64,000 nt of DNA from Candidatus Omnitrophota bacterium (GTDB lineage Bacteria; Omnitrophota; Omnitrophia; Omnitrophales; Aquincolibacteriaceae), in contig JAUYMS010000024.1 in the NCBI GenBank assembly GCA_030698625.1, positions 482 to 64,481 on the forward strand, given 5' to 3'. The first letter of the stretch is position 1, and every line of letters starts with the position of its first letter. The notes beneath the pieces are model-generated. The model saw only the letters and a list, made by a program, of their open reading frames with translations, searched no databases and was not told where the DNA came from. Shown in pieces: positions 1 through 20,600 of this stretch. The translations under genes and the position numbers were made by a program.

Positions 1-3000
1 CGGCATGTTTTCTTCCCAGGAAGGTTCCTCCCCCCTCGATTTCATGTATGATAATGGCATTTTCAATCACCCGAGCTGCCCTATCCGCTCCAACCCCCAT
101 AACCTTCAACGCCGCAGCAAGGACCCCTCTAGGGTCCTGCCCGGTTAGAACCGCGTGACTTACCAGCCGATGCAGGACAACCGCGTCCCACTCCGTTTTG
201 AGCGTTAAAACAGGGCCGATCTTCCTTCGTAATTCGTCCACATCTTCTTGCAGCTGTCCGGAAATCTCATACTGTGAAACATTGCCGAAATCCTTGACGA
301 CCAGATTCTCGTCAAACCGGCTGAGGATATCTTGCACTCGAGCCTCCCGTGGGCCTTGCGGCTGCGCGGCAGACCCGATAGCCAGCGCTGTTTTGATAAC
401 GTTGTTCCTCTCCTTTTCTGAGAGGACAACGATCTTTTTGTCATCGCCGCGGAACAACTCTTCGAGCCCCTTCATCAGAATCGTGTTGTCCTCACTGGTT
501 AGCATCTCGATCCCCACTGCAAGCACCAGCAACAATGCCTTCCGGTCCTCTTCAAGGGCCCACTGAAGGCTCAAGGCTCTCCTTTTCTTCTCAATAGCCT
601 CCATAACACCTACGATAGAGACGATATTTAAATTGGCCTGCTGCCGCTTTTCGCGTGCGGCACCCGAGGTGTGCATTGCCGAAAAAACATCCTTTGCCCT
701 TTCTAACTTACCGATAATGTCATCATGCTCTGAGGAAGTAAAATTATCACGCCCGCGGAAATCAGTTCCCTCGGCCAGCCATCGCAGCGCATCTCCTTCG
801 GTATCTTCCCTAAGTTCGGATCTTTCGGTACTCTCATCGAAATCGACGGTAACGACGAGGACGTTTTTGCTGGATTTCGGTGCTTCGACGCCCAGATTGT
901 CAGCCTTTTCAACATAGGCGCGAAACTGAGGGGCCTGTGACCGTTCGGCAAAATATTGCATACGAAACATCGTAAGATTGTCGAGTAAAAACTGTTTCAC
1001 CGCAGCGAACCCTTTTTGTTCGTAGAACTCTGCCGGGGGGTCACCAAGGTAGACAACTTCATACTCGCCGGAGCTGAAGTCCTTGCGCCTTGCGAGCACA
1101 ATACTGTCGATCTTGCCCGTCCCAAGACTCTCTTTAGCAAACCGGGAGACTTTGCCCCAATCAGGTGTTATCAGGACGTCGTCATTCTCATTTTCATCCT
1201 GCCTGAGCTCGGAGCGGTTAGCACGATTTTCGATAACGCCATGCGCCTCATATAAACGGTCGTATTCCGTTCTGTTGACGGTAAAAACACCGGTTTGCAT
1301 AACTCCGGCGCTATCCCTGTAAACAATGCTCAAGCCTATGGCGCCTCCGCGTAAGCCTTCAATAGCTTCTCGGGCGATAGGCCGCTCACTACCCTCCCGA
1401 GGCAAGGTCCTGCGCATTCTGACATGCAAAGCGACCGGCGTATCCCTGGCCTTGTCTTCAACCGCCAGGGCCTTATAGTAGTCCGGTCCGTAAATTGCAA
1501 TAATGTCTTGCGGAATAGGCGGTTTTCTTACAGAGCGAGACAAGATCATTTGGAGATTGGGATGAAGGCGGCGGATCGAATGATTGATTTCTTGGATTTT
1601 GTCTTCGAGTGCCTGTGCAGTTATCTCAATGCTCAACCTTTTAAGCTCCTTCACCAAATCATGCTCGGAAACACCGTTGGTCGCCGTGCCCCGTGAGAAC
1701 CTGTAAGCCCGGGCGATTTTCCACCCGGTTTCGTCAAGAGCGAGATTCCACTTCATGCGCAACCTTATTTCACGCAAGCGCTCATTCTCATCTCGGATCG
1801 AAAGCTTCTTTCCCGTATAGCTTGCGCTATGGAGTGCCGCCACAAGATCATCATAGGAGTCGTAACTGTTGATTAATTGCTGATCGAACGCCTTTAACAG
1901 TTGCTGCTCTGCGATTCCCGCAACGTTGCCGACATAGGCCGTCTTATCCGTTAAATAGTACGGGAAATCGAGTAAGTCGTTGACACGATCAAGGGCATCA
2001 AGTATTTCAACTTCCGGATCACCGTTAAAATTTATGTAATCACTCAACTTTTCGATAATTTCGGCAACCGAGGCAACACCTCGCCCATAGGCGACATAGG
2101 TATGTCCCCAAACAATGATTAGATCTCTCGCCATGAGTTCAACACCAAACCGCTCACGTACGCGGGCAAAGGCAAGCGGCAGTATTCCGTGCCCGGATAC
2201 TGAGGCAATCGTTTCCAGGTATTGCTGAGGAGTCGAGCCGTAGTCTTCATCAAAAATCCATTCGGGTTGATCTGCCTCGATGCGTAGAAACGGCAGCAGT
2301 TTTTCATCGATAGCCTCATCAACTTCCGGAGTCGTGAGCTCGCGTCTCGACTCCTTTTGGGAAACCGTTGTCGTTTCTCTAGGTTTCGGCGCCGAGATGC
2401 TGCTCTTCGGTATTCGTGCTTTGGGAGCTGCTACGTGCGCATCGACCGGCACCTCTGCCTCAGATTGAAGCTGTCTATAGGCAGCCGCTCCGTTCAACAG
2501 AGGTTCTAAAACGTCGTCAAATGCGGGGTGCAACTTCCCGATCATCTCCCAGTCATCCGCGTAATCGTTGGCTACCAAAAAGTCCGCCAACACTCTTATT
2601 TTGTCGGCTGCACCTTCATCGTCGGCGCTCTTAAATTTCCAGCCTTCCCACTTTAATTTTGCTGCTATCTCCTGCAAAGAGGGAGTCCGGTCCTGCCCCT
2701 CACCCGGCAGCTGTTGCCAGGCATGAAAAATGGCAACGACATTAGGCTTCAGCTTCCTGGGAACGATTCGAATCGGGGCCCGCTGAAGTTGTGGAGACGC
2801 GTGCCCCATCAACGTGCTGTTAATGCGAACTACAAGCTCTTCAAAACGGCTATCGATGATACCAACCGCATCATCGTGGGCCCCCATGGCCGCAAGACCT
2901 ACCATTATTTCCGGCTTACTCGGAGGCAATTGCTCATTAGTTTGAAGAGCTTGAAAGTAAGCACTCAGGAGCAACCGGGCATGGGCATCGGCCGCTGACA

Positions 3001-6000
3001 ACAACCGCAGGGCTTCTTCTTCGGTAGCGATTGGCAAGGCCTTTGTCTGACGAATGGGATTTTCTAGATATTCATTATTAAGTGCCGCAACTCGGCGACT
3101 CATCACCGGCGGTGTAATAATTGACTCGCCTAGATCTTTGAGCTCCTTGGCTCCGATATAATCGCTCAAACCTCGCAAAAGCGCCGGAAGCGACACATCC
3201 TGCCCATCGGCAATCAGCGCTTGATGCGCCTTGACAAGGGCAAAACTCAGGGGATCGATAAGAATTTCACGAAACTGCCCCAGGGCAACTTCATCCAAGC
3301 TCAAGCTGTATATAAGCGCCACCTCTTCTCCCTCGATTTGATCGCGAATTTGCGCCATGAGCCCAAGGCTGAATTCATACCAGTTTTCTGCGTCGTTATT
3401 CTCCAAATAGCGCAGGGCGATTTTTTGAATTTCTTGTCGAATCACCTGGCGGCGTACATTTTTGTCTGCTTTGGCACGTGTTTCACGGCGCTGGGTAAGC
3501 ACCTGCTTCAGCGAACCGTCCCGCTCGAATCGGTATCCCCGGCTGAATAAGAAGGCCTGCAGATCCCGAGCACCGACACCTTCTCCCAACCATGTCGCAA
3601 GATTCTGCAGGCCGTCGCTCGGGGCAAGCTCTCCCAAATACGGCTCATAAACCAAAAGACTCCTCTGACTCAGGTAGGTAACAACCTTGCTTTGGAGATC
3701 CTGATATCTCTGCTCAATGCGGTCAGCTACCGCATGATAATCACGCACAAACTTATTCGGATTCTCTGCCTTGCGGAACATCTCCCAATAGAAATCTCGG
3801 GCGTCATGCAGCAGCAGCCTTAATGAGAGGCGCTGTTCGTTAGTCATGATGGACTGTTCGTAGCCCTGAACGTTAACTTTGGTTTCGCCTGCGGCATCAA
3901 TAAGTCGTGTCATTTCCTCTTTGGGAAAATCCGAAGGCTCCAGACCGTTCTTCGTTGCCCACACTAAGATGTCAGCCTGCCAGTCCAAATCTCGGAGAAA
4001 ACGGACTAGGGATCGTGTTACCGGTGACCGCCACCCCTGAAGGGCTTCACGCGCTGTGGTTTCGTCAATGTGAACGCCGATGCTGATGCGAGTTGCTAGA
4101 GTCGCAGCATCACCTTCCCGGGCATAATTTGGGTCGGCGGCAATAATGGTAAGCAGGCCGGCTTGTTCAAGCGTGATCTTCTCTGACCGGGCCAATTCAG
4201 AAATGACGTGGAATGCGGGCTCAGTTTTGTCCAGATGAGTTGCGATTCGAGTTTCAATAGCCGCATGAAAATCCGCGTCGGCGTCGGGGAGATCCACGAC
4301 ATGAAGTGAATCAATCTGCCCCCTAATTCTCCCGATCAACGGGCGATCCAAATAATCGTCAATGCGGTCTTTCAAATGCAGCTTGCGTGCTTCCTCACTC
4401 ACAGATCTATGTGTTTTGTGATATTGCTCTTGAAGCTGCTGCAGGCGCTCACGGGCCGCCGCGAGAAAGTCACGGACAATACCGGTCTTCGTCTGCTCGT
4501 CCGCAGACTCGGCAATAGGCGCCATGATTCCGTCGTTCCCATAGTGCGCGCGGGCATAGGCGATGATCGCATCTCCCAGTCGCCTGATCACAGAATCTGT
4601 ATTTGCACGGTTGCCCAAGCCCTGAAGGCCGGTAAGAAAAGGCTTCACTCTGTCGTCCAATCCGCGCTCTCGAACATTGTGGGGAATATCGATATCCATA
4701 ACACCCTGCGCCACAGCGATCTTAAAGGGCCGACTTCGAAAATAGGGCTCTTGTTCAAAGAAATACCTTAACTGATATAAAAACTCGATAAAGGGATCAG
4801 GATTTTTGATGATGGCTTCAAGAGCTCTCTCCGGAAGATCTCGCCCCCAGAAAAGGTGATCGTAAGCACTCCAGAGCGGTTCACTGCGCTTAATCAAATC
4901 ATAGGCCAGAAGTATCTGCCTTTGCGTTTCAGGAGCATAGTGCTCGGCCGTTTTGGATGCGAGGCCTTGGTCCAGCATAACATCGGTGAACGTGTCACGA
5001 ACCGGCACGGAGAGTCGATTCCAGATCACCACATAAAAAAGCCGCCAAACGTCATTGGCGCGCGCCCGTGACTCGCGCAGGTAATCAAGGACTTCATCAA
5101 CCGTCTTCCCGTCGCTCTCCGCAACCATCGACACGCTTGCACTCATAGAATCATCCGTTTCAAAGGAGAGCTCCTCCTGAACACCGTATGTAATCAGATC
5201 TTCGGCGGCAATCTTTGCGGCGAGCTTTTTAACGTTTCGGTAGTCCTGTTCGGCCAACGTCATGATGCCTTCGACGGGAAGATTGTCCAAGAGCTCAAAT
5301 GGCTGGGTATCGCTCTGCAACACTTCTGTGTTAATCCGCGCCAACAAATCCTCCACCTCCGCTTCTTGCCATTCCCTGTCCTCCTCACCCCTTCCCCAAT
5401 TGAGAGCTATCGTCAACTCCTCTTTAGACGGCTCCGCGGCATTTCGTCTTTCGTCTCGAGCACGGAGGCGACGGGGATCCAACTCATCGAACTCGGCCTC
5501 AGATCTTTCCCGATAATTCTCCTTGTAGGCCCGAATGGCATGGTAATGAAGCAGGACAGTATGTCCGCCGTCCATGATGGCCGGATCATAGGCATTGGGA
5601 GGATTCACGGGAATGGTAATGACATCCAAGTCGATCACGGCACCCGGAATCTCGACGGCCGCAGCCAACCTTTCCATCTTTTCACTAAGCGGTGCCCGCA
5701 CCTCAAAATCTACGCGCCCCTCTTTGGCATCAGATATAATCTCAAACTGATCCGCAAATGGCTCAATCGCTTTCAACACGCGGTCATCTTCAATAAACCC
5801 CACGGTCGGAATCTTGGCTATTCGCGTCGCCAAGTCCAAAACATCTTTAATACGGTCACTCTCAACCGCGAGAGCTTTCAGAGCCTGACTGACGGCTTTG
5901 GCATCAACGCCCTGCTTCAGGAGGTCATAACCCATGACAACAGCAAGCAGGATCGCTTGCTCGACAGCCGCTTCGGGAAGCGTGTGGTCTTCAACACCTT

Positions 6001-8608
6001 GAAGCTTCCTGATATCCGCCATAAGCCGCACGGCCAGATTCTTGTTCTGCGTCGCCAGAGATTTCTCAGTTGGGCCCGATTTTGCTGACAAAACCGCATC
6101 TGAATATTTTACAGCTTGCTGAAAATCAGCCAGCGCATCATCGTACCTTCCTTCGGCCATTAATACCTTCCCTTGTTCCCCGTGAAGGGCTGCTAGCTCT
6201 AACGAATCATCTTCAGTTCGCAATTCTGAACGCTGGCTGCCAGGCGATTGCCGGCGCCGAATATAGATCACGACGAGCGTGGGCAGCTTCTTATCCTTTT
6301 TCTTGACGGCGTGTTGTTCAACGGAAAGTTTGAATCGGAATTTTTCGGCGTTCGACACTTGAACTTTCTTCCGTCGTGCCCTAGCGGAGTCTGCCGCTGC
6401 AGACGGAGCACTCAGGTAGGTATCATGCAAGTTTTGGAGGTGCTGCTTCAAGTAGCGCGAAGGCGAGCTGTGGAAGCTCCTCGCCTCGTTGGCAATGTGT
6501 GTGATTTGATCTGAGAATTTCCCGGGCCGATACTCAGATTGTTGCAACATGACCACTTGATCGATTCGACCATTCAACAAGAGGTCACGAGCCTGCTCTT
6601 CGACATCAGCCCAGCTCTCAAGGTCCCATGGCCCCACATCACCTTCGTCCTCATCGGCGGCCCTCAACTCCGATCTGACGGGGCTGGCCTCTCTAAAAAA
6701 TGCCTCGGAGAACAGTCTCGGTCCAGACGCAGTAAAACCGACATAGAATTCACCGCTTCTGACCGCCTGTTGATTGAGCCAGATAATCCAGAGAGGCTGA
6801 CCCTCATGCTCATAGGCCTGATATTTCAGCTGTGCGTGACGCCGATAGGCGTCGTTTCGATTAACTTGGTTTACGCGAGCCGCGAGATTAGCCGGATCTT
6901 GCACAAGACGACGGCTCACGGCACTATTGATTCCAAGAGCGCCATGGTGTGCCTCGCGTTCACCGATAAGGGGTTGTGTCACACTCCCGAGCGGCTGAAC
7001 GCGGGAAAAAAAACGGATATAGGATTTCAACGTATGGCGGTCGCGCGTGAGCGTCATCGCGTCATGGTAATGGTCACTTTCTTCCCGCTGCGGAAGATGC
7101 GGCGTAATACCTACGTAGGAGACATCCTGTGCCTTGAATATGTCCGTAAGACCTTCGGAATGAAATCCGCCGGCCACGAGCACCGCTGCCCCGCTTCCGC
7201 TTGTCTTCATCGCCGACAGGGCATGATCAAACATGGCACGCTCGCGCTTTTTGGCGTCACGATAAAAGGCAAGGGCTTCGTCAAACAGATCCTCCAAAGA
7301 CGATACCGGCACCTGTCCCTCTAACCGTGACTCCATGGCTTTTGGTTTAAGCCCGTCAAGCCTGTCGAGCAGTTCCCGGTAATTAGCAGGAATCAGTTCC
7401 AATCGAAAAAGCTGTTGAAGCAGAAGAAAATCCCGATAGAGGCGGACCAGCTCCGTTTCTTCAGGTTTCACAGCCAGCGCTTCTAGAATCTCATTTCTAA
7501 CGCGAGTTAATTCTTCCATTAATTCCCCCGCATTAAGTTCGCTGCGCAGAATGACGGCACCCGCCATTTTGCTGAAATGGGGATAGTCTTGAAACGAGAA
7601 TCCCTGCCCGGATGTCTCATCATAGAAACGATGAAGGAAATCACGGGGGGTCTCTTCATTCTGCGTGCGCACGGGACTGACCGCAGCAGGTTCAAACTGC
7701 TTCATGCCCGAGGCGAATGAGTCTAGACCATGAATACGGATCCAAGCGGAGATCTCGGCAATTTCTTCCCGGACCCCCTCCGCATTCAAGGCTTCCTCTG
7801 CCTTACGGGCAAGAAACAGCCGAACCAGCTGCGGCCATTGTTGCTGCAAACGTGCATCGGTGAAATCAATCTCCAGTTCTCTCGCTGCATAGACGCGTAT
7901 GACATCAAGGTGACGCATCAATTCACCTGAGACGTCCTCATAAAATACCCATTTCTTGAAAAAGTCGCTCAGCTTCTTATTAAAAACTCGAGAACCGCGG
8001 GTGAGAATCTGTGCTTTTGTCCGGGCCAAAACTGTTTCTGCTGTCGCCGATCGCTCAAGGACGCTTCGAAAAGCACGCAAATTGCGGCGATACAAGCTCG
8101 GGTCTTCCACGCCGAATGCCTGAACCGGATCGTCATCATCGGCCAGCATTTCCTCCAGCATGAAGAGCTCGACACCCCCGATCAATCCGTCACGCGCCAT
8201 ACTTTCGGCGGCATCACGATTCCACTGGGGATCGTCGAAGAATTTGAGAAGTCTCGGGTCCTGTTTACCGAGCCCCCCCTCGACCAAGAGAGTGTTCAAA
8301 CCGTATTCCTTCTTGAGATGAGACAGTATATTCTGGATATTCACCTGGGCCTGATACTGAGAATGGGCATCTTCGATGTAGACGATTAGAGGGGCATTCG
8401 GATTGGCACTATGATATCTCTCTTTGACGGTTCCGATCGAATCAGGGATGGTGATCTTGTCGATGACCGAAACTGTGGGCATTTCTTTTGTGATGGCCGT
8501 CGCTACAACCACACCGGGCGCAGCCCAGGCCACGCTCGTAACGGTGAAGCACAGGTTCACCGCCACGGCAATAACCCGAAGAAATGGTTTTATCCTTTTG
8601 CTTTTCAT
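1..8608 (-). CDS. Giant ORF A, partial (3' end beyond window start). ATG at 8608-8606; at least 2869 codons with no stop in minus-strand frame 1. Has a Sec-type signal peptide (MKSKRIKPFLRVIAVAVNLCFTVTSVAWA/AP) and an N-terminal domain paralogous to gene B ('LIVYIEDAHSQYQAQ', 'VLVAGGFHSEGL'). Downstream modules are separated by 'RSELR' motifs followed by an acidic stretch. Not in the supplied ORF track because no stop codon falls inside the window.
   Basis: I reverse-complemented and translated the region manually, 60 nt at a time, and found no stop from 8608 down to position 1. Every minus-strand ORF listed in the track for 1..8600 is in frame 0 or 2, none in frame 1. The N-terminus aligns to gene B: IPDSIGTVKERY..PLIVYIEDAH..LLVEGG versus LPEDLGYIEERY..PTVIFIQDAH..VALEG, and AAVLVAGGFHSEGLTDIFKAQDVSYVGITP versus KTVVVITGGFHREALAESFRAEGISFAVVTP. 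Confidence 0.8.
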   Translation of the reverse strand, partial: MKSKRIKPFLRVIAVAVNLCFTVTSVAWAAPGVVVATAITKEMPTVSVIDKITIPDSIGTVKERYHSANPNAPLIVYIEDAHSQYQAQVNIQNILSHLKKEYGLNTLLVEGGLGKQDPRLLKFFDDPQWNRDAAESMARDGLIGGVELFMLEEMLADDDDPVQAFGVEDPSLYRRNLRAFRSVLERSATAETVLARTKAQILTRGSRVFNKKLSDFFKKWVFYEDVSGELMRHLDVIRVYAARELEIDFTDARLQQQWPQLVRLFLARKAEEALNAEGVREEIAEISAWIRIHGLDSFASGMKQFEPAAVSPVRTQNEETPRDFLHRFYDETSGQGFSFQDYPHFSKMAGAVILRSELNAGELMEELTRVRNEILEALAVKPEETELVRLYRDFLLLQQLFRLELIPANYRELLDRLDGLKPKAMESRLEGQVPVSSLEDLFDEALAFYRDAKKRERAMFDHALSAMKTSGSGAAVLVAGGFHSEGLTDIFKAQDVSYVGITPHLPQREESDHYHDAMTLTRDRHTLKSYIRFFSRVQPLGSVTQPLIGEREAHHGALGINSAVSRRLVQDPANLAARVNQVNRNDAYRRHAQLKYQAYEHEGQPLWIIWLNQQAVRSGEFYVGFTASGPRLFSEAFFREASPVRSELRAADEDEGDVGPWDLESWADVEEQARDLLLNGRIDQVVMLQQSEYRPGKFSDQITHIANEARSFHSSPSRYLKQHLQNLHDTYLSAPSAAADSARARRKKVQVSNAEKFRFKLSVEQHAVKKKDKKLPTLVVIYIRRRQSPGSQRSELRTEDDSLELAALHGEQGKVLMAEGRYDDALADFQQAVKYSDAVLSAKSGPTEKSLATQNKNLAVRLMADIRKLQGVEDHTLPEAAVEQAILLAVVMGYDLLKQGVDAKAVSQALKALAVESDRIKDVLDLATRIAKIPTVGFIEDDRVLKAIEPFADQFEIISDAKEGRVDFEVRAPLSEKMERLAAAVEIPGAVIDLDVITIPVNPPNAYDPAIMDGGHTVLLHYHAIRAYKENYRERSEAEFDELDPRRLRARDERRNAAEPSKEELTIALNWGRGEEDREWQEAEVEDLLARINTEVLQSDTQPFELLDNLPVEGIMTLAEQDYRNVKKLAAKIAAEDLITYGVQEELSFETDDSMSASVSMVAESDGKTVDEVLDYLRESRARANDVWRLFYVVIWNRLSVPVRDTFTDVMLDQGLASKTAEHYAPETQRQILLAYDLIKRSEPLWSAYDHLFWGRDLPERALEAIIKNPDPFIEFLYQLRYFFEQEPYFRSRPFKIAVAQGVMDIDIPHNVRERGLDDRVKPFLTGLQGLGNRANTDSVIRRLGDAIIAYARAHYGNDGIMAPIAESADEQTKTGIVRDFLAAARERLQQLQEQYHKTHRSVSEEARKLHLKDRIDDYLDRPLIGRIRGQIDSLHVVDLPDADADFHAAIETRIATHLDKTEPAFHVISELARSEKITLEQAGLLTIIAADPNYAREGDAATLATRISIGVHIDETTAREALQGWRSPVTRSLVRFLRDLDWQADILVWATKNGLEPSDFPKEEMTRLIDAAGETKVNVQGYEQSIMTNEQRLSLRLLLHDARDFYWEMFRKAENPNKFVRDYHAVADRIEQRYQDLQSKVVTYLSQRSLLVYEPYLGELAPSDGLQNLATWLGEGVGARDLQAFLFSRGYRFERDGSLKQVLTQRRETRAKADKNVRRQVIRQEIQKIALRYLENNDAENWYEFSLGLMAQIRDQIEGEEVALIYSLSLDEVALGQFREILIDPLSFALVKAHQALIADGQDVSLPALLRGLSDYIGAKELKDLGESIITPPVMSRRVAALNNEYLENPIRQTKALPIATEEEALRLLSAADAHARLLLSAYFQALQTNEQLPPSKPEIMVGLAAMGAHDDAVGIIDSRFEELVVRINSTLMGHASPQLQRAPIRIVPRKLKPNVVAIFHAWQQLPGEGQDRTPSLQEIAAKLKWEGWKFKSADDEGAADKIRVLADFLVANDYADDWEMIGKLHPAFDDVLEPLLNGAAAYRQLQSEAEVPVDAHVAAPKARIPKSSISAPKPRETTTVSQKESRRELTTPEVDEAIDEKLLPFLRIEADQPEWIFDEDYGSTPQQYLETIASVSGHGILPLAFARVRERFGVELMARDLIIVWGHTYVAYGRGVASVAEIIEKLSDYINFNGDPEVEILDALDRVNDLLDFPYYLTDKTAYVGNVAGIAEQQLLKAFDQQLINSYDSYDDLVAALHSASYTGKKLSIRDENERLREIRLRMKWNLALDETGWKIARAYRFSRGTATNGVSEHDLVKELKRLSIEITAQALEDKIQEINHSIRRLHPNLQMILSRSVRKPPIPQDIIAIYGPDYYKALAVEDKARDTPVALHVRMRRTLPREGSERPIAREAIEGLRGGAIGLSIVYRDSAGVMQTGVFTVNRTEYDRLYEAHGVIENRANRSELRQDENENDDVLITPDWGKVSRFAKESLGTGKIDSIVLARRKDFSSGEYEVVYLGDPPAEFYEQKGFAAVKQFLLDNLTMFRMQYFAERSQAPQFRAYVEKADNLGVEAPKSSKNVLVVTVDFDESTERSELREDTEGDALRWLAEGTDFRGRDNFTSSEHDDIIGKLERAKDVFSAMHTSGAAREKRQQANLNIVSIVGVMEAIEKKRRALSLQWALEEDRKALLLVLAVGIEMLTSEDNTILMKGLEELFRGDDKKIVVLSEKERNNVIKTALAIGSAAQPQGPREARVQDILSRFDENLVVKDFGNVSQYEISGQLQEDVDELRRKIGPVLTLKTEWDAVVLHRLVSHAVLTGQDPRGVLAAALKVMGVGADRAARVIENAIIIHEIEGGGTFLGRKHA

Positions 8609-8671
8609 AAATAGTGAATCGGGGGGACGCGGCCGGTGCCACCAGATCCGAGTGACCTGGTATGTCGGGAT

Positions 8672-8688
8672 AGGAACATCCTGTTCCT
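8672..8688 (-). other. Stem-loop AGGAACA-tcc-TGTTCCT (7-bp stem, 3-nt loop) in the 90-nt spacer between gene B's stop and gene A's start. No U-tract follows it on the transcript strand, so it is not a canonical intrinsic terminator.
   Basis: A perfect inverted repeat read directly from the sequence, 11-27 nt downstream of B's TAA on the minus strand. Confidence 0.45.
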
Positions 8689-8698
8689 GTCCGTGGCG

Positions 8699-11600
8699 TT
8701 ACGCCGAAGCCGCGATCTCGCGATGGGACGCAGCCATAAGCTGCAAGAGGGTTGTCAATATGGTGATTCCTGTGGAAACATCATATTGAACGGAGCCGGC
8801 ATACCTCTCCAGTGCCTTATCAAGAGCTTGAGCCGTTATCTCCGCAGTTTCAGTCGTGCTGAGAAACTGCGCTAGCGGAGGAACTAACGACATACTAAAG
8901 GCAAGAGGTACACCGTTGCTGCGCACGATACGCTGTCTCGGCACTGATCTACTCAGAGCCAGCCACCTATCATGGGGAAAGAAAATCCCGTATGCGTCCG
9001 CAAACTTCTGGTTACCAATAACACGTTGATCGAGCTGCTTGGTAAGCTCAACCCATTGTGAATCTGTCCCGTCTACCCAATACAAAGAATCTCTAACTAA
9101 GTTCTGAGCCGCGGCCTTCTGTTTTGACAGCGCACTCAGGAAATCACCCTTCTGCTTCTTCTCCTTATCAGAAAAAACAATATGAAACTGAAAATCCTTA
9201 ACATCTAAATTCGGTTGGCTGTCCACCGCTTCGTAGACGCGCGCGACAAAAGAGAGTAATTGCTCCTTGATTTCCGGCGAATAAAAGATGATGGGAGTTA
9301 GCTGCTTGACTTCCTGGCGCTGAATCGCATCGACTAAGCGGTCCAGCGAAGCACGAAACTCCTCCCGGGCAATTTGATTAAACTGCTGGGGGCTGAAGCG
9401 GTGCTCCTTTAGAACTGTTCCGGCGTACGCGTATGCCTCGCGGGTAGATCCGGAGAACTGCTGAGCGGCAGCTGTGCGAACAAAGAGGTGATCAAAAATC
9501 AAAAGCCGATAAGAGGCGCGGAGGCCGTCTGCGAAACCCGCCACTCCGGTATCAGAATTGGCGACGTTCTCTACGGTAAGCGCTGAGGTGCGTGCAATGA
9601 CGACGGGGCTCGGCGAAACAATCCCGGCAGCAACTTCTGCAATGGCCCTCAACTCGGAACGCTGATCTCCTGCCTTAGGCGCTGGCTTCGCTATCGTCAG
9701 GGTGTTTTCAGCTTCCTCATCTAACGGATTGCGTATGATCTGAAGCAACATCGTTCCTGGTTCACCCGCCTTTTCAACGACGGCAAAGGCAGTATGCGCC
9801 TCAATCGTCTCATTTCCGTCCGTAACCTGAGGAATAATGAGTCCGTCACTGGGCTTTGAAATATCGATAATGGCCACGGGATGATTGTTTTCGTCGTCGA
9901 TAATGTAGTCAAAGATCGGAGTCATGTGCCCGGAATCTGCGACGCCGGTAGGTCCCACGATGTCCGCAATTTCCCGCCTGACCTGGAATACCGCCGCTAA
10001 ACTCCTTCCGGGAAGTTTTCGTACGATGAGGGCCGGGCCTTTCGCCTCCCGACCTCCGATTAGAAGCAATCCATGCGCCGGTAGCCCGTCAGCCGCTATC
10101 TTGGGCCATATTTTCGTCTGCCCACCCTTACCGCGACCACCCAACCGCGTTATTCCATATCTTTTGTCTGCACCCCTACGATAGGCGCCATTCCACTCCG
10201 GAAAACGAATACTTGTGACATCTTCTTGGGTTTCTATGGCTTCCCAATTTAAATCCCACGGCTCTTCCACAGAGTCCGGAGTCATTCCCGGCTTAAGCCG
10301 ACCAAGCCACGTCCGTTCACCGGCCTCATCCACATGGATGATCGTAATCGATGTCTCCTCGGCATCGCCCTCAAGATCCATTTCCTCGTCAAATTCAGTA
10401 TCGATATGTCCCGCGCTTAAGCGGTTCGGAAACTTTTTGCCGTGGCGGCCGATGAAGAGCTCAATCGCGCGCGTCTGATCCGCCGCAAACTCGTCTTGAA
10501 TTTCGTCCCCAAGTTTTTCGCTGAGATACTCACGGATGCGTCGAACAACGCTCGAATCCAGAGAGCCTCCGAGCGCTATCGCTTTACGCGAAGCCCGGTA
10601 CTTCCCGAGAAAATCTCGATTCTCTTTTCGTGTGCCGCCCGCGCTGTGTTGAAAATTCAATATGCGCCCTTCCAATAGCGGAAGTGCCTTGGGGTCCGCA
10701 AGCTCCCAAAGAAATTTCACGAGGTGTGCATAAACCTTCTGATTTACAAGCGTGGTAGCGATTTCAAGATAGCGGCCCGACTCCTTAAGGCCGGCAAAGC
10801 GTTGCTGCAGCCTGTCCAAGCCGACAAACGCAAGCTCCAAGCGATTTTCATCGCTCAGGCCTTTAATTTCGGAGACGAGAGCATCCAAATGGGCATGAAG
10901 TCTGAGCTGTAAGAGTGTGGTAATATCGGCGGGCGCCAAGCCTGAGTCTTGCACGAGGTGCGCATTCACCCAAATGGTCTTATTATCCTCATCCACGATG
11001 ATGTCCGAGGAAAAGTGCTGCATTCCTTCCTGAATCATGACGAATGTATAGCCCTTTCCATCACTGAAGTTGGCGGGATTTTTGAGTAACTGCATCAAAT
11101 CATGATCGTCGGTGATATCGTCGGGAACCGGTTCGGGTTGAGGCAGAACTTGGGGACGGCCACCTCGGGGCTGTCCGCCTGTGGCTGCTGGTTCTTCGAC
11201 GATGACACGGCGGCCTTCATTATTCATATCAGAAAGTGTCCGCCGCAAGAGGTCAATCACTTCAACGTCAAGCTCATTGGCAAATGGATCCCATTCTGGA
11301 TTATCTCCGAAGCGCACATTCAGGATTTCGCCCAGAACGCTTTCAAGATAGGCTGCTTCGGGATTCAAGTCGATCATCTGATGAATTTTACCGGTAATTT
11401 GGGGCACCGCACCTATGTCCGGATGGGCTGTCGAAATGAGCCCTTTAAGCTCCCCTTTTAGTCTCAGGAGCTGCACCTCTTCCGAACGTAATTCCACCGC
11501 ACGCCTATTGATGCGCGTAACCCTATCTTCAATCCAGGCGTTCAGGCTGCTCGTCGGGTCTCCCTGATCCCCATCATCGGTGGGCGGATGAATGTGTATC

Positions 11601-14600
11601 ACGTCCGCACCGCTTCGTGTCAGGCTATGGCGTCTGCCGCTTCGTATCTCATAGCCATCCCAGGGGAGCCTGCTTAATCTTTCCGGACTAAGGTCGACGT
11701 CAACATTCGTCCTCTTTGCCAGCACGAATGAACTCTGCGTCAGAACCTTACGCAATCTGGCCGGAATACCCTCTAGGTTGAGCGTGCCGAATCCGTTATG
11801 AACGACGGTCATTCCGTAGTTCTCCTCAAGAAAAGTTCTCGCCGCTTCGGTCATGTCACCGTTGTGAAGAAAGAGCAACACATAACCATCCTTCTTCGTA
11901 TGCTGCACGAGTTGTTTCAACATATAATTGCGCTGGCCTACGTAGAGTTTCGGAATGTCCGCTTCCGTAATTCCTGCGGGAATACGGTCGAGTACCATAT
12001 TCAGTAAGCTCCTCTCCGCCCTCGGCAGGGCTTCCGGCACGCGAGCTCTGTGCTCTCCCCGCAAACGCCTGCGGATAATATCCTCCAGAATTCTGCGCTG
12101 TTCCGGCGTTAGATCCGGAGGAATGATCGGTTGACCATAATGCCAAAGTTCGGAACCTATGGTCAACTGCGCCACTTCGGGCTCCAAATCATCCAAGACG
12201 AGGTTCTTATTTATGTAATCAACGTTCGTAACACCCCGGTTATCCAAGTTCTTGTGCGCTAAATCCAGCATAGCTTGGGAGAAATCCACTAGGTTATAGT
12301 GCAGGTCATTGATCTTGAAATCACCCGTCGGTGAAAGATTTGCCATGATACGACGAACCTCGTACCAGCCGAGAAGATCTGTGGCCGGTCCTGAGGGCAG
12401 AAAGCTAACCGTATCCCCCTTCGACAATTCAATCTGTCCGGTCGTCTGTAGTTCTACAAGGTAACGCAAAAACATCTGCCCCAAAGGATACGCAGCCAGC
12501 CGCGTAATTTTTTCGGAATATTCTTTGGCAAAGCGGTCCCACATGTCGCGTACGGTATTCCAGTCACCCGTCCGCATTGCCACTGAGTAAATGCGTTCTA
12601 AGTTTGCGAGTAATCGTAACATTTTGTCGCGCTCGCGCGACGCGTCTTGAATCGCTTGATAACTGCTGACTTCAAGTTGCTCGTCATCCACAAATCCGTC
12701 CAGGGCCTGAAGCAACATGTCGCGTTTCGTACCCACAAGAGGAATTGCGCGGGTCGCTTCCCATGTATTCGGCGCATAATACTGACGAATGTGAATTTCG
12801 TCGGCGGACTGACCACGCCGGTAAATGCGCGAGATCACCTGCTCACGTCTTGCATCGGTTAGCGGAGAGTCAACGATGTAAATTGCATCAGTGGGCTTCT
12901 CCTCGGAGCCGACGACGTCGAAACCTTCCCCGCCGGAGCCCGCCATCGCTAGAAGTATCTCCTTATCCGGAGAATCATGATCCGTGTGTCGATTAAAGTT
13001 TTCGATGGTAGCATACCGAAGCGGTCCCGTGACCGGTTCGTTGTGGTCAGGCTTCTGTAGTGTTGCGATAAATTCCTGTCCGAGGCGCCGTTGCACCATG
13101 CGGCGAATACGTGCCATGGGCTTCGGAAATGTGGCTGTATTGTAGTCCGCATGCATGACAATAGCCCGGAAGTCACGCAGGGCTTGTTCCTGACTGACCG
13201 GTTTCGTTGCGACAATCCTGCGGCCGATAACGCTTTCGAGATAGGGCTGCGCCTTGTGTTCAACTCTCCGGACGAGGTCATCCTCGGCAACTAAATCCTT
13301 GCTTATCGATTGAATAACACGCTGAATTGAAGCGACGGGAATACCGAGTTCGCTAACATCCGATACTTCCGAACGACCCGCCAGGACGCGCTGCAGTCTC
13401 AGGACCTCCGCCTGTCCGCGTTTCTGGGCCACCAATTCATGAATACGCCGCAAGATGGCGTGAAAATTACTAACGGCAAAGACTTTACTGTCAGGATGAG
13501 TACTACGGTGGTTAATAAGATCAGTAGCCACCGCGTCGAGGCGCGCAGGCGAAGTAAAGGCATAGGGGAAATTGGGATTCGTCGAGGGATCCCCATAGGG
13601 ATTGGGGGGCCCCCAGGATTGCCTGTCATGAGTCAACTCCCTTATGGCTTCGGCAATAATTCTGTCGATACTTTCTTGAACACGAGGATTGATCTCGAGT
13701 TGATCCTGAAGCGATGGCAGTGCTTCCTCCAGACGCAGCAGTACAGCCTCAAGCGTCGCAGGATCAATTCCTAACGCATCCAAATCCAAGCTTCCTAACT
13801 GAAGTCGGGTAATTTTTCCAACGCGTTGCTGGTTATCCGCCGTATTCAGGAGGTCCCTGTCGAGATATTCATAAACTGCCTGCTGAAGGTTATCACCGGC
13901 CGGTGTCAAACGTTGTTCGAGACTCACTTCTACGAACTCGGTATCGAGACGCTCGGGCAAATTATCGCCCAGGACCTGTTCGCGCGACCTCCGGATAATA
14001 ATACCACGCCTGCGCAAATCAAGATTTAGAGCGACGCGCCCCGCAACACCTTGATAACGCCGACCGAACCCGCGTTGGGAGGCGGCCAGATTCGAAGCGC
14101 CGTTCAGCTGCTCGGGGTATTCCTCCGGGTCCAGCAGATGCAGCAAAGGATAAAGATCACCGACGGAGTTTACTAGCAATGTCCCCGACAAAAGCAGGAT
14201 ACGCTGTTCAGGGCGCGTACTGCGCATTGAGATCAGTGTTTTTGTCTCCGAATTCGTCGCATTCTTAAAGCGGTGGGCCTCGTCAACGATAATGAGATCG
14301 GGTCCCTGATCAGCCCCGCCCCAGTTCCTGAGCTCTTCGGCCAGAACGTCCTTTTGCTGACGCGTATCCCCGTCCCATTGAATATCTTGACCCGTCGCCA
14401 AAAAATTGTAATTGATCATAACAAAGCGCGCCCTGTTTTTGGCGTAAAGCAATCTCTGCATGCGCGTCGAGTTGCCGTAAGCACCTGAATAATCGGCATC
14501 GATAATCACATAGAGATCCTTTTTCGGACGCTCTCCCTCGGGAAGCTCCTGTAGCCCATCAGCAATTCGTCTCTCGCGGTTCCAATCCTCCTCAGTCATA

Positions 14601-17600
14601 CTGTTCCAATCAACCGCACTCAGATCAAGCCTTTCGGTGTTCGGTAACCATGACTGGATATGCTTTTCTTCCCAATTGTTGAGCACGCCATTGGCGGCAA
14701 TTAGGAGAACGCGTTGGTTACGTTGATTTTCCGATGCCGTCTTCAAGGCCTGCTGCATCATAATATCTTTAGCAACCTGCGCAACGCCGAGCGCTTGCAC
14801 CGATTTACCGAGACCCGGCTCATCGCCGATGAATCCCCGCAGGGTCCTTACTCCAAAGTCAATTCCCTCATGCTGATAGAGCTCTAACTCCTGCTTGATA
14901 CTCGTGCCGGGCTTTACTGCGTTGACATGACTTTGGTACTTGGCTTGTTTGAGATCGTTATAATGCCGTCTTAATTCTGTGTAGACAGTGACATTGGCTT
15001 CGGCTTTTGCCAAACGCAACTGAAGCGCTCCGTCCTCCGAAGCAGTTTGTTCGCGACGAACGGCATCAACTTCAGTCTGCCACTGCGCGCGTCCCGCCTC
15101 GGCCCATTCGATAGCGATCTCCATCGCCTGTTCGGCCGGCGTCCCGCCCTTGCCATTGGCTTCGTCGGCGGCCGCTGCCATCAAATCATTCGCAATCCTC
15201 TCTCTTATCTGTGCAAGTAGAATATTCTTTGTACTGTCATTCTGAAAAAAGAGGTAAAAATCATTCTCCAGATGTTCAATCCGGCCACGGCTGTACGATG
15301 TCGGTTTCCGACTCTTCCTGCCGTTAAGTTGCTGACGGAATTTTTCGGTTAGAAGTTGCATCAGTTGATCTTCGGCCATCTGCGGATTGGCTGCCGACAG
15401 CAAAAACCAGAACCCTGCGCGGTCGGTCTCGAAGAGATCGAGCCATTCATCCATATTAATGGTACGCGTCAGTTGCCGGAAGAGATCGCGGTTGGTCTCG
15501 TCGACTGTTTTTTCCAGACGTCTCTGCCTCTCAATCGCGCCAAAACCCTCGTATTGCCTAAAGCCCGTATCGTGTAGGAGCAATTGCACCGCCGTCTCAT
15601 AAATGCGGTCGGGACCCGCTGCGGCGGATACGTAATCTCGATTGACAACTTCTGCCTCGTACACCGCAATGAGAGACTCCAGGTTCTGATCCCCCAGGAT
15701 CGGCTGCTTAAAATTGCTTCGGTTCCGGAGAAGACCGTCCATGTCGGTGTCAGCTTGAGACATGAGATAGAGCAAGAGCGTACGTATCGCGTCGCGACTG
15801 ATGATCCTCTCATCCTGCCACGGGGCTTCGGCAAGATTGGAGAGCCACCTCTGACTGGGATCAAGCAGCTGTGTCCGCAACTCGGAGCGAGCCGGTAAAT
15901 TCCTGAACACCCGGCTCAGTTGTTCGCGAGTTAGGGCATCATCACCGGCCAGCTTAGCGATGCCGGATACAAGCCTCCTCTTACCAGAGACATACTTTGC
16001 CAATTCTGCTGCCGCAACACCGCCGATCCTTCTGTTGACACCACGTTCACCGGGCTTCCCCTTTTCCCAGTAACCAACCGTTCCTGACTGCACGGGTCCG
16101 CCGAGCGCCGCATAGATCACGGCTTCATGAAGTTCGGAATTGCTCAGATTAAGTGCGCGCGCAACTAAGAAAGCATTATCTAAGAAGTTACTTCTCAACT
16201 TACCTGCAACGACTGGCGTAATGTTGCCGTGAGGAAAGTTTGCCCTTTTAATAGCGGCTTCGACGGCGGCTTCAAGGGCTTGGTTGGCTTCATGAAAGAT
16301 CGGTTCCATTTGGATCAAACTAAGATTGGGTACCCCAAGAATACGCGCCACCGCTGCGGCATCCGTAACTTCATTTCTCGGCAATGCTGTTCCTAAGAGG
16401 AATTGTGCTAACTTCGCCGCGTCCTCCCAGGTAATGGTCGCAATAGGGTTACTGCTCCACCAGCGTCGTGCTTTCGCCACGGGGAGGCCCACAGCTCGGG
16501 CGATATCCTCAACGCCCAGTCCAAACTCCCTCGCTACCGCTTGCGTATTGGCCAGAAAATGGCGATTCGCCCGTATCGTATCGACATCTTCCCTCACCAA
16601 GCGGTGAGAGCCTCGCCTGTAAAGCCATCGTCCGGGCGGCGTGATAACTTCTCGCAAGCGCCTTTCGGCCGCAATGTCCCCGTCGGTCGGCTCGTCCCTG
16701 CGTGCCAAAGCCGAAGGTGCCGGCTCGGGAGCCTCTCCAAAACTCGCATAGATCTCTCTGAGTTGCGCCGTCCCGATTGACGTGTCACCGTATATCTTGG
16801 CTACCGCGCGGACACCATTCGCTTCCCCTGTGACGTATTTAGCGAGTTCCGAGACGAAACCCCACGCCGCAACAGGATCTTCATGCGTGCCGTCCCTGCG
16901 GTCCAATCCGTTTGCCCAGTAGTAGGACGAGGTCGTACGAAGCGCCTGATTGATCTCTCCGTGCGTAATACTCAGCACCGGCGTCACGCGATAGATATTC
17001 CCAAGGACACGCTGTTTAAAACGTTCTGCGGATGCAACCGTAATATTGCCGGGATTGAACTGGGCCGCCGGCAAAGGCGTCGCTTTATCCCGCACGGCTT
17101 GGTCAACTTCCTTTTGAGCATCTGTAAAGACTGCCGCAAGCTGGCGCACACTCAATCGCCGGATACCGACGAGCCTTGCCACCGCTGCCCGGTCATCGTA
17201 AGCGGCTTCATCCTCGAGGAGGTACTTGGCAAGCTTGACCGCATCGTCCCAGGAAATCGTGACATGTTCGTTTCCTTCATAAGTCCACCAGCGCGTGATT
17301 TTCCCGAAAGCTATGCCTGTCTCGGCCGCAATGTCGCGGCTCGCCTGCGTGACTTCGTCTTCGCCCCAGAGGGCTTTAACAACCGCAAGCGCATTGCGAA
17401 TAAAATGGCGGTTAGCGCGCTTCTTATCTATGGAAGCGACGGTATATTGGTCCAGCCATGCCTTCGGATTCTCAATTGTGCGGTTCAGATCGACCCCTGC
17501 GCGCAATTCCGAACGCTCACCAAAATCCGAGAACACCTGTTCAAACTCCGCACGGCCAAGGCTACTGTGCCCTGCGAGTGTGGCTACGGCGCGAATCTGT

Positions 17601-20600
17601 TGCTTGCTTGCCGAGACATACTGTGCGAGCTCGGCTATATAAGCCCAGCTTATGCTCGGATATTCCCACTCGCCATCCTTGCCCGGCTTACCTTTCTGCC
17701 AGTAATTTGCCGTCGTCGTATCCAAGGCTTCGTTTATTTCAGGATTTGTGATACCCAACTGCGGGGTGACACGGAACACGTTCTGCAGCGCGTGCAGTTT
17801 TAAACGGCGGGCATCTCCGTTCTCGACATTACTGGCATCAAAGAGAGAGTACGGCAGGTCGAGGGTTTGCTCGGCCACAATGGTCTTGATCGCATCTCTG
17901 GCACCGTCGAAGATGGGCGCCATTTGGATGAGGCTCAGGTTCGGTGCCCCGATCATGCGCGCCACAGCAGCCGCATCCGTATAATTCTTTTCGATACGAA
18001 GCAGATAGCGGGCAAGCTTTGCAGCATCCTCCCAGTTAATGGTCGCTATGGGGTTGTTCCACCAGCGGCGGACTGTCGCCACATGCACGCCCACAACATC
18101 GGCGATTTCCTGATCGTCGATCTCCAGGTTGTCGGCAACGCGACCTGCATTTTCAAGAAAATGTTGATTCGTCTTGATCGTGTCGGCATCCTGCTTGACA
18201 AGACGATTCGATCCTTTTCGGAATAAGCCACGGGCCGGCTCACGAATCCCGCTGACCTGGGCCACATCCCCCTTGGGCAATCTTTCTCTCGCCCGCCTGA
18301 AGATGGCCGCGATCTGGGCACGAGAGAGTGATGTGTCCCCGAATAGATAAGCCAGCGAACGGTAATAGCTGGTCGCCTCTGGATACCCGGTCAGAGCCAA
18401 CTTGGCCAGTTCTCGGGCATATTCGAGGTCAATACTGCGATAGACAGTACCTTTCTTACCCTTCTTCCAGTAATCCACTGTCCCCGTGCTTCCGGCGCCG
18501 GTGGTCTGACGTATTTCTTCATAGCTGTAATGATTCCCGATCATCCAAAAGGCGTTATCCAAAAAGAGATTCCGTGCCGTTTTGGCTTGTTCGATCGTAA
18601 GATTATCAAGATCAACGACTTCCCCACGCTTCGCGAAGTAATTTTGTAAGGTAGTCGGCTGTTTGACGAGATCCCCGTCTTCGGCCTGGGTCCTGAGCTC
18701 TGAGCGCGTAGGAAAAGCCGCAAACACTTCGCTTAATTCCGCATGCGTCAGGTTCTCGTCGCCGGTCAGAGTGGCGGTTGCCGACACAGCCAGCTTCTTT
18801 CCGGTAATATACTTTGCCAACTGAGCTGCATAGGGCCCGCGAATCGTTCGCTTGGCACCTTTCTCACCGGGTTTGCCATTTTCCCAGTAACCTACTGTTC
18901 CTGATTGGGCCGGTCCGCCCATGGCGATATGGATCACGGCTTCATGGATTTCGGCGTTACTCATGTTCAGTGCCCGCGCTGCGAGAAAGGCATTGTCGAG
19001 AAAGTTACTTTTCAGCTTTCCGGCTGCAGTCGGCGTCAGAGGATCCCGCTTAAAGTTAACGGGTTTAACAGTATCGGCGATAATCTGATTAATGACCTTA
19101 TTGGCTTCGTGAAAGATGGGTTTCAGCTGAATCAAACTCAGACGCAGCGCACCGAAGATTCTTGCAACCGCTTGCGCGTCGGTGAAGTCGCCCGATTCGT
19201 CACGCAAAAGCCGTTGAGCCAATTTTGCGGCATCCGCCCATGTAATCGTGGCAATCGGATTGGCCCACCAACGGCGAACCGTCGCAACGTGAACACCGAC
19301 GAGATCGGCAATTTCCTGATTATCAATTTCGAGGGCTTGAACAAGCGCATAGGTATTGGCAATAAAATGGCGATTGACCTCGACTTTTCTATCACCGATA
19401 TCTTCCGCGAGAATCCGTTTCGAACCAGGTCTGAAAAATTCATCAGCTGGTCTTTCTATAAGTCTATTGATATTGACTGGCCCATCGGCGGCGGGCGGTG
19501 CCGGTCTCGATTTAGCAGGCGATTTCACGACCGCGGGCTGCCGTGTCTGCGGCGTAGGCATTTGGTCGTCACGCGGAAAATCACGCCATATCCGGCTCAA
19601 CACATTTGCATCAATCGTGTCATCGCCCGCCATTTTGGCAACGGCTACGACCGGGTCCACTTCAGCGGAGACATATTTCGCGAGCTCGGAAGCAAAACCC
19701 CAGGCAATGACAGGGTCCTCATGGGTGCCGCCCGGGCGGTCCAATCCGTTCTGCCAATAATAGGCAGACGTGGTATTGAGCGCATTATTAATTTCATAGT
19801 GCGTCACCTTTAAGGCGGGAGTCATTCTGTAAATATTGCTGTAGACATGCTGTTTGAAGCGCTCCGCCAATTCCGGCGTAATCTCATTGCGGTCAAAATC
19901 AATGCCGCTAAGGGGCTGCACTAATTCTTGGGCAACCTCATCAATAACGTTCTTCACTCCCGTAAAGATGGGCGCTAATTGTCTCAAACTCAGGCCTTTA
20001 TTACTCGCCACGCGCGTCCCGAGAATACGTGACACCGCGGCCGCAGGTTCATAAGCGAATTCGCTTTCCAAGAGGACGAGCGCCAGAATAGCTGCATTGG
20101 CAAAAGTAATAGTCGCGGCGGGATCCGTTCTCCAGAACGACACCGTACTAGGCGTAATTTCTTCGTCAAGCGTTGCAAAACCGTCCACGATATCCACATT
20201 CCGAATGCCTAAGGCATCGGCAACGCGAAACGCATTCTTCAGGAAGTGGCGGTTGGCCTTGTTACCGTCAAGCGTGCCGAGGTCATAGGGCTTGAACCAT
20301 TTGCCCGGTTTCTTGATCACCCTGCTGAGATTGACCGTCTCGACATCTTCGCCCCTGAGTTCCGATCGGGCCCGAAAGCCCGGATACCTTAAAAGAAAGT
20401 CGGGTCTTAAAGATTGCGTGCGGAAGACCGCAAGAATCGTTCCAGCCGGTACGGCTTCGGCAAACTGGTTGGTAGGGCTGCTCAAGATGCGCGCCACTTC
20501 AGCTTCCGTGAGCCTATCCTGCTGATCCAAAATATTGATTCGTTCGATGAAGCGTTCCAGATTCGCGGACCACTTCTCAGTGAAACGCGTGATCAGATCA

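Follow-up and report, generated by a model that had tools for sequence, protein, structure and literature searches.

A giant gene at the edge of an Omnitrophota contig appears to belong to a head-defined family of predicted exported modular proteins punctuated by a short border motif

The first 8,608 nucleotides (nt) of a 64,000-nt stretch of Candidatus Omnitrophota bacterium DNA (GenBank assembly GCA_030698625.1, contig JAUYMS010000024.1, positions 482 to 64,481 of the forward strand; this whole stretch is hereafter called the window) raise the question of what is encoded in a region for which a list of open reading frames (ORFs) held just two plus-strand entries, of 240 and 261 amino acids (aa). 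The minus strand of this region, referred to as gene A, had been proposed to carry a giant gene running off the window edge, next to a second giant gene (gene B). Cleavage of giant Omnitrophota proteins has been proposed before, with the cleavage points stated to be unknown (West-Roberts et al. 2023, 10.1101/2023.11.21.568195), the conflict between cytoplasm-type enzyme content and predicted export was left open in 10.64898/2026.06.07.730766, and a predatory or parasitic lifestyle has been proposed for the phylum (Seymour et al. 2023, PMC10066038). The results presented here suggest that gene A encodes an exported protein made of a hydrolase-like N-terminal head followed by modules, that these modules are bordered by a recurrent pentapeptide, RSELR, and that the protein may be processed at these sites.

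Translation of the reverse complement from the ATG at 8608-8606 down to position 1 gave 2,869 codons with zero in-frame stops, as the original prediction had claimed; the other five frames of 1..8608 contain 55-199 stops. From the stop-trinucleotide frequency of the window, the probability of such an open frame arising by chance is ~1e-45. Compared with 17 housekeeping genes of the window, gene A has a correlated synonymous codon usage (r=0.84; other frames <=0.52), and its GC content at codon positions 1/2/3 (~0.62/0.38/0.56) is uniform along the gene and near housekeeping values. The encoded protein shows 100% identity to the GenBank entry 'MAG: hypothetical protein Q8R76_03265 [Candidatus Omnitrophota bacterium]' (P0001, 2,973 aa, on a 64,645-bp contig; MAG, metagenome-assembled genome), which begins at a GTG, codon 15 of gene A, and extends 118 aa past the window edge. 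Counted from the ATG, gene A is 2,987 aa long (~9 kb), and its stop lies ~354 nt beyond window position 1, as placed by this GenBank protein, the name of which bears no partial flag. Gene A is a real gene. That it could be non-functional, whether as a chance frame, a decayed pseudogene or an assembly chimera, might be argued from a body which is nearly without homologues and has no Pfam or NCBIfam domain; however, the improbability of the open frame, the housekeeping-like codon usage along the full length, the conservation of the head in at least 313 genomic loci and the conservation of a body cassette, including the positions of motifs whose codons vary synonymously, with the relative P0041 (see below) leave this explanation a negligible chance.

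The absence of gene A from the ORF list is explained, as had been supposed, by its lack of a stop inside the window, because the ORF tool skips ORFs running off the window ends. A hidden giant ORF as such is therefore a correct but ordinary observation, an artefact of ORF listing: the gene was hidden from the tool, but not from the genome record, where Q8R76_03265 was already annotated. Similarly, the description of a frame of at least 2869 codons open to the edge applies within the window, but only 118 more codons follow, so the frame is not open-ended. The claim of more than 22 kb of contiguous giant-gene coding sequence agrees with the in-window coding length of genes A and B (22,267 nt), except that the two are split by a 90-nt spacer, in which no promoter or terminator consensus was found on the minus strand.

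The gene A protein begins with a classic Sec signal peptide, as first described, which fits the n-h-c rule (MKSKRIKPFLR / VIAVAVNLCFTVTSVAW / A-W-A↓AP) and has an arrangement conserved in homologues. W28 and P31 are invariant among the heads closest to that of gene A, and AlphaFold places a helix at aa 8-26. The signal peptide is the sole transmembrane (TM)-like segment of gene A, genes A and B both being without internal TM segments, and this topology corresponds to the 'SP-only' class of 10.64898/2026.06.07.730766. The GenBank GTG start sits 14 codons downstream of the ATG at 8608 (window 8567-8608, minus strand) and removes the basic n-region. Because the ATG supplies this n-region, which is conserved in homologues, the deposited GTG start of Q8R76_03265 is probably wrong and the ATG at 8608, the start originally chosen, the better one; the likely start codon of the GenBank entry is thereby corrected.

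Following the signal peptide, the N-terminal ~500 aa of gene A are homologous to those of gene B (24% identity, E=5e-26), in agreement with the relationship noticed at the outset. In a confident structural model, this head adopts an alpha/beta fold, with helices flanking a parallel beta-sheet at its centre, and its core lies in two parts (aa ~55-170 and ~440-510) with a ~270-aa all-helical insertion between them. In structural comparison, the head resembled the EreA-like proteins 2rad and 2qgm (similarity scores of 9.8 and 9.2), the type III effector HopBA1 (9.2), the erythromycin esterase EreC (8.9), a TraB-family protein (8.6), ChaN (7.9) and the MARTX Ras/Rap1 endopeptidase RRSP (7.5), and Foldseek placed the same proteins at the top, without significance. 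PF04187 (ChaN, Tiki superfamily) was matched by nine of 22 family heads, with a best E=1.2e-6, and gene A's own head gave no Pfam match at E<=1.

Within the 22 heads, H82, E110, R455 and G480-G481-x-H483 (gene A numbering) are invariant, and D80 is a consensus residue. The published catalytic set of the superfamily includes a His-Glu pair 28 residues apart (Bcr135 H85/E113), and that of RRSP an E-x-H, a second His and an essential Arg located 29 residues before that His (R4001/H4030). In the gene A head, H82 and E110 are separated by 28 residues, as are R455 and H483, spacings which match those of Bcr135 H85/E113 and RRSP R4001/H4030; from spacing and fold, D80-x-H82, E110, R455 and H483 are inferred to be the equivalents of the superfamily catalytic residues. 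Because the D/E-x-H, E, R, H set is invariant, the head is read as an active hydrolase, and sequence and model together suggest that gene A's head is probably an active Tiki-fold hydrolase with its core split by the insertion. The D-x-H, E, R, H residues, spaced as in Bcr135 and RRSP, are what the head has in common with the superfamily of Tiki/TraB/PrgY, EreA, ChaN, HopBA1 and RRSP. Unlike in that superfamily, the head studied here is always N-terminal after a signal peptide and fused to thousands of variable residues, and that of gene A differs further by its ~270-aa helical insertion and lack of a Pfam match of its own.

The distribution of the head was determined by a locus scan of one genome per species with a 5-sequence alignment as query, and the locus statistics given hereafter concern the best 79 of the relatives found. 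The scan returned 313 head relatives in species-representative genomes. In the best 79 of these 313 loci, nearly all are from genomes titled Omnitrophota or Omnitrophica, many of these genomes are multi-copy and tandem pairs are frequent. Forty database relatives have a length of 1,800-5,000 aa and match the first 17-19% of the gene A query only. The Pfam domains carried as cargo by the relatives include phosphoglucomutase (PGM), phosphofructokinase, glutamate dehydrogenase, UDP-glucose dehydrogenase and starch synthase, together with kinases, receiver domains, Lon, AAA, SecA and others. Judged from the sequences, these proteins constitute a head-defined family of giant modular proteins, almost exclusively from Omnitrophota and apparently undescribed until now. 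Two loci come from MAGs outside Omnitrophota labels (L076, Elusimicrobia; L078, Planctomycetia), which could represent a binning or taxonomy error or a rare occurrence beyond Omnitrophota. Large ORFs rich in the motif of their genome were also seen on the same strand upstream of head genes, cut by the locus edge (L001:178-8145, L016:44-7861 and L040:296-5200); they are probably further tandem members, and the arrays may be longer than seen.

The window part of gene A contains exactly four RSELR motifs, each followed by acidic residues (Table 1). At least four such motifs had been reported, so that the count stands, but their value was under-rated, the motif being the most informative feature of the gene. 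Genes A and B have 4 and 5 copies of R[S/A]ExR, respectively, and closer relatives 4-21, compared with a shuffled expectation of 0.1-0.4 per protein. In a six-frame scan of the window, 9/9 in-frame copies fell in genes A and B, with 0 in ~30 housekeeping genes and 0 in a third giant gene, and in the fetched loci the motif density was 2.46 per 1,000 aa in head-gene bodies versus 0.08 in neighbouring ORFs. The punctuation motif is exclusive to the head family, and its occurrence by chance is rejected by the shuffles and the six-frame scan. All nine window copies are exactly RSELR and are written with varied synonymous codons, indicating selection on the peptide; a DNA-level repeat or recombination site behind the motif is therefore also rejected.

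Across 325 sites, conservation is limited to the five core positions, and the flanks are rich in P, S and T and poor in aromatic and hydrophobic residues, a composition which places the motif in exposed linkers, as expected. In gene B, the motif bounds three paralogous modules (z=78-205) of ~400-550 aa with HTH matches, each ending in '...VF....RSELR'. In the relatives, every examined Pfam domain lies inside one motif-bounded module and is never interrupted: a receiver domain is framed by two motifs, and HPr and a sugar-transferase start 9 and 26 residues, respectively, after a motif. The distance between motifs, and hence module size, has a median of 211 aa, and the first motif always comes behind the head, with a median distance of 134 aa from GGFH. 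As a short conserved peptide, RSELR thus marks the boundaries between modules that fold independently.

The interpretation proposed here is that gene A encodes an exported polyprotein which would be processed at the motif sites, most plausibly endoproteolytically, by a cutter left unspecified; we consider the chances of this interpretation to be even. The location of the motif in linkers and the selection acting on it suit any recognition event, cutting or not, and the protein could instead be an uncut surface or periplasmic scaffold, exported as such, with the pentapeptide in its linkers serving for docking or modification, for instance to bind a common partner. In the literature, the giant proteins of Omnitrophota are mostly interpreted as adhesion or surface coat proteins, and the protease partner sought among neighbouring genes and by covariation was not found, both of which would suit a scaffold. 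A docking motif, however, needs neither every module border nor a place directly behind the head, the modules of the relatives resemble complete stand-alone enzymes, and a repeated partner-binding logic is not evident, which makes a scaffold unlikely.

Gene A gave no Pfam domain above threshold and its body nothing in NCBIfam, and when aa 798-1997 were compared by HMMER with 1.84 billion representatives, P0041 (28% identity, E=9.5e-47) was the sole match apart from one fragment; profile searches of the translation, suggested earlier as a check, thus yielded one real relative of the body and no domain. The TPR-like helix pointed out in the original prediction persists as a weak resemblance, with a single copy of TPR_2 at aa 807-835 (window 6104-6190; E=0.0021), scoring 18.5 bits against a gathering cut-off of 27, and two TPR-only matches to aa ~804-860 among the same 1.84 billion representatives.

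P0041 (5,918 aa) belongs to the family too: it has both signal peptide and head and carries seven RSE[V/I]R motifs. A cassette of gene A (aa 645-2600) aligns with aa 2130-4260 of P0041 at 27.7% identity, with a small module (143 aa in gene A, 132 aa in P0041), a large module (1,667 and 1,840 aa) and a second small module (126 and 139 aa), and all four gene A motifs align column for column with motifs of P0041 while their flanks differ. The cassette lies ~1,500 residues farther from the head in P0041 than in gene A, and gene A motif 1 aligns with both the post-head and the pre-cassette motifs of P0041, suggesting that motif-bounded cassettes move or get lost as units. The two small modules of gene A, m2 and m4, are weakly related to each other (z=8.8, Smith-Waterman versus shuffles), this being the only internal repeat so found in gene A, and BLAST detected none. 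Furthermore, aa 2540-2703 match aa 2200-2360 of P0041 (E=5e-5); by this link, which passes through P0041 alone, the C-terminal module m5 probably represents the beginning of another large-module copy, which is truncated. The small-module model of gene A is a compact alpha/beta domain whose ends beside the motifs are disordered, and it gave no structural neighbour.

In other members of the family, RSExR is replaced at the same positions by [A/G]xSLG (5-11 copies per protein) or by (S)GARLA (up to 20 copies, in P0030), and RASA[S/T]G and PAVR, each present about four times, are possibly further motif versions. Alternative versions were seen in P0030, P0032, P0005, P0008, P0016, P0017 and loci L016-L075. 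All giant paralogues of one genome have the same motif type, such as the six genes of MAG OFTM55, all of which are xSLG. When ~120 heads were placed in a neighbour-joining tree, RSExR and xSLG genomes were mixed within each of several old paralogue clades, and an xSLG gene, L028, nested among the closest head relatives of gene A; the head tree is rough and the interleaving of the two types extensive. The motif type therefore follows the genome and not the head lineage, suggesting a concerted switching and pointing to one shared reader. Extended to the phylum, these observations would describe a family of hundreds of exported Tiki-head polyproteins with shuffled cassettes, cut at a genome-specific peptide by a shared protease whose specificity switched several times, all substrate genes following; this wider scheme is offered tentatively, with the balance leaning somewhat against it.

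The shared reader could be the head itself. In such a self-processing polyprotein, the head would be an endopeptidase cutting first in cis behind itself and then in trans on all family members, an autoprocessing of the MARTX kind. Only the head is shared by all members, and it retains the full catalytic set of a superfamily that includes the endopeptidases Tiki and RRSP, the motif is confined to head-bearing proteins, and its first copy always follows the head at the distance given above. On the other hand, esterases and a haem binder also belong to the superfamily, genes A and B both go with exactly RSELR although their heads share only 24% identity, and the heads nearest to that of gene A include one from an xSLG genome (L028). 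No head column tracks the motif type beyond shuffled labels either, the best mutual information (MI) being 0.46 compared with a null 95th percentile of 0.43 and a null maximum of 0.51. The head as motif reader is thus unsupported by the covariation test and a candidate by fold only, and self-processing is regarded as rather improbable. A linked partner or protease gene was rejected as well, no neighbour family recurring in more than 8 of the 79 loci; those that recur are housekeeping genes such as superoxide dismutase, an ABC transporter, UvrD and glycine cleavage, and the context of the window is housekeeping too.

For the interpretation as a processed polyprotein, the following course may be envisaged. 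The gene A precursor would be exported by Sec and its head would act as a hydrolase; one genome-encoded factor, most probably an endopeptidase, would recognise the motif in all family proteins, and the precursor would be cut at the motifs into separate module proteins, as a bacterial polyprotein. The cargo modules might then reach the cell surface or a host cell, by analogy with the modules of the relatives and with the predatory or parasitic lifestyle proposed for the phylum. The conflict between export and a cytoplasm-type cargo, which in the relatives includes ATP- or NAD-dependent enzymes, would disappear if the modules entered a host or prey cell, and such a route would fit that lifestyle. 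The same cargo can be accommodated by a cytoplasmic polyprotein with an exported head, in which a cut at the first site, before or during export, would let only the head cross the membrane while the cargo works in the cytoplasm. The relatives' cargo of cytoplasmic machinery (PGM, UDP-glucose dehydrogenase, HPr, receiver, SNF2, HTH), a first motif always just behind the head and the lack of internal TM segments in genes A and B are in its favour. However, the reason for fusing cytoplasmic proteins to an exported head across hundreds of genes would be unclear, the topology predictions of 10.64898/2026.06.07.730766 put most long Omnitrophota proteins at or beyond the membrane, and this scheme is purely inferential; it is considered very unlikely.

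Several observations weigh against an exported polyprotein cut at its motifs. Cleavage is a prediction from the sequence, and the equivalence of the head residues to those of solved enzymes is proposed from spacing and fold; searches of PDB sequences, with the head profile and with single sequences of the catalytic region, gave no match to a solved structure. No conserved neighbour or cognate protease gene was found, the best neighbour family occurring in 8/79 loci, and no head column separates RSExR from xSLG genomes beyond label permutation. The cytoplasm-type modules of the relatives, namely PGM, UDP-glucose dehydrogenase, HPr, receiver, SNF2 and HTH, are ill-suited to periplasmic export, and gene A has four sites only, which leave a 1,667-aa module undivided. 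In addition, a distant clade (P0015-P0036, L062, L076, L077 and L079) is without a clear motif, and some complete members of ~740-1,250 aa carry 0-2 motif copies, those of ~1,050 aa having none; processing is therefore not universal in the family. Complete members of ~1,050 aa are found at L030:9992-13156, L039:6681-9833, L052:9788-12877, L055:6303-9476 and L061:104-3274 and consist of the head plus ~550 aa, in several genomes of both motif types; a Pfam scan of those from L030, L039, L055 and L061 gave no domain. Such motif-free proteins might be minimal or ancestral members of the family.

The giant 'multi-enzyme metabolic cluster' proteins of Omnitrophota have in common with the present family the phylum, a topology of signal peptide with or without TM segments and poorly conserved bodies, and their Pfam domains are shared by the relatives of gene A (starch synthase, PGM, receiver, ROK, methyltransferase, GNAT and HAD). 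Gene A differs from them in having no Pfam domain above threshold, whereas relatives with the same head do have such domains. With 2,987 aa, it is also far below the thresholds published for giant or long Omnitrophota proteins, which are an ORF of >20 kb or >=10,000 aa (10.64898/2026.06.07.730766, PMC10066038), and is better seen as a small relative of that phenomenon. The proteases invoked for Omnitrophota giants (C39 and subtilisin) were not found in gene A by Pfam. In term searches of 10.1101/2023.11.21.568195 and 10.64898/2026.06.07.730766, neither a common head of the Tiki fold nor a motif at module boundaries came up, the search of PMC10066038 being confined to giant proteins and lifestyle, and a literature search found no mention of these pentapeptides as motifs or of Omnitrophota polyproteins.

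Among other known systems, MARTX toxins are also very large and secreted and have strain-variable effector modules, which in MARTX are released by inter-module cleavage. The fold of the family head is shared with the MARTX effector RRSP, although the Tiki-fold domain is cargo in MARTX and a conserved head here. In contrast to MARTX, Pfam finds no RTX repeats, cysteine protease domain or type 1 secretion signal in genes A and B, which have a Sec signal peptide instead. MARTX may be considered the nearest functional analogue, the processing of gene A being predicted from its sequence. Viral polyproteins likewise consist of one long ORF with complete modules and a short conserved peptide between them, variable between lineages and uniform within a genome. 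Unlike these, the present family is cellular, chromosomal and multi-copy among housekeeping genes, and both processing and protease are predictions made here.

The coordinates of the features of genes A and B are compiled in Table 1.

Table 1. Features of genes A and B in the window, with residue numbers of gene A counted from the ATG at 8608.
Feature	Window position	Strand	Basis or remark
Gene A, in-window part, codons 1-2869 of ~2,987	1..8608	-	open frame, 100% match to P0001, coding signal
Sec-type signal peptide, aa 1-29: basic n-region, hydrophobic core, AWA↓AP	8522..8608	-	sequence
Head domain, aa ~52-520	7049..8455	-	Tiki/EreA/ChaN-fold core, split
Invariant head residues H82; E110; R455; H483	8363-8365; 8279-8281; 7244-7246; 7160-7162	-	
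RSELR motif 1, aa 645-649, end of head module	6662..6676	-	aligns with P0041 688 and 2130
Small module m2, aa 650-792 (143 aa)	6233..6661	-	compact alpha/beta domain
RSELR motif 2, aa 793-797	6218..6232	-	aligns with P0041 2267
Large module m3, aa 798-2464 (1,667 aa), nearly orphan	1217..6217	-	
RSELR motif 3, aa 2465-2469	1202..1216	-	aligns with P0041 4112
Small module m4, aa 2470-2595 (126 aa), m2 paralogue	824..1201	-	
RSELR motif 4, aa 2596-2600	809..823	-	aligns with P0041 4256
C-terminal module m5, in-window aa 2601-2869 of 2601-2987 (387 aa)	1..808	-	last 118 aa from P0001
Spacer, gene B stop to gene A start, 90 nt	8609..8698	-	
Gene B, 4,552 aa, tandem paralogue with signal peptide and head	8699..22357	-	
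RSELR motifs of gene B (five)	20354-20368, 18692-18706, 17501-17515, 15875-15889, 9647-9661	-	

Besides its three paralogous modules, gene B has a 2,071-aa module with a SNF2 domain, and the presence of DNA-binding and helicase modules behind a signal peptide is odd. The window region 22671-53402 is of a housekeeping nature and comprises lpxA, fabF, rpsA, aromatic amino-acid genes, scpAB, trpS, uppP and PGM, along with gltX, NAD kinase, dxs, xseA and an outer-membrane Alginate_exp-like protein. With these genes between them, the giant genes are on no obvious mobile island. The third giant ORF of the window (53572-63957, minus strand; 3,461 aa) lacks the head, RSELR and any Pfam match. Its strand composition is strongly skewed (GC skew of -0.2 to -0.3, AT skew of ~-0.3), in which it differs from genes A and B, and it represents another kind of giant gene.

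Taken together, the Tiki-fold head, which defines a large subfamily, and the genome-specific five-residue motif at module borders provide two sequence handles on the puzzle of giant Omnitrophota proteins. The motif predicts exact product termini for proteomics, lets giant proteins be split in silico for structure prediction, and its type is a trait whose correlation with protease repertoires can be examined in complete genomes, so that whether and where the Omnitrophota giants are cut becomes directly testable. If the phylum-wide scheme proved true, the family would be a cellular counterpart of viral polyprotein processing, and its motifs would for the first time supply explicit candidates for the cleavage points of Omnitrophota giant proteins.

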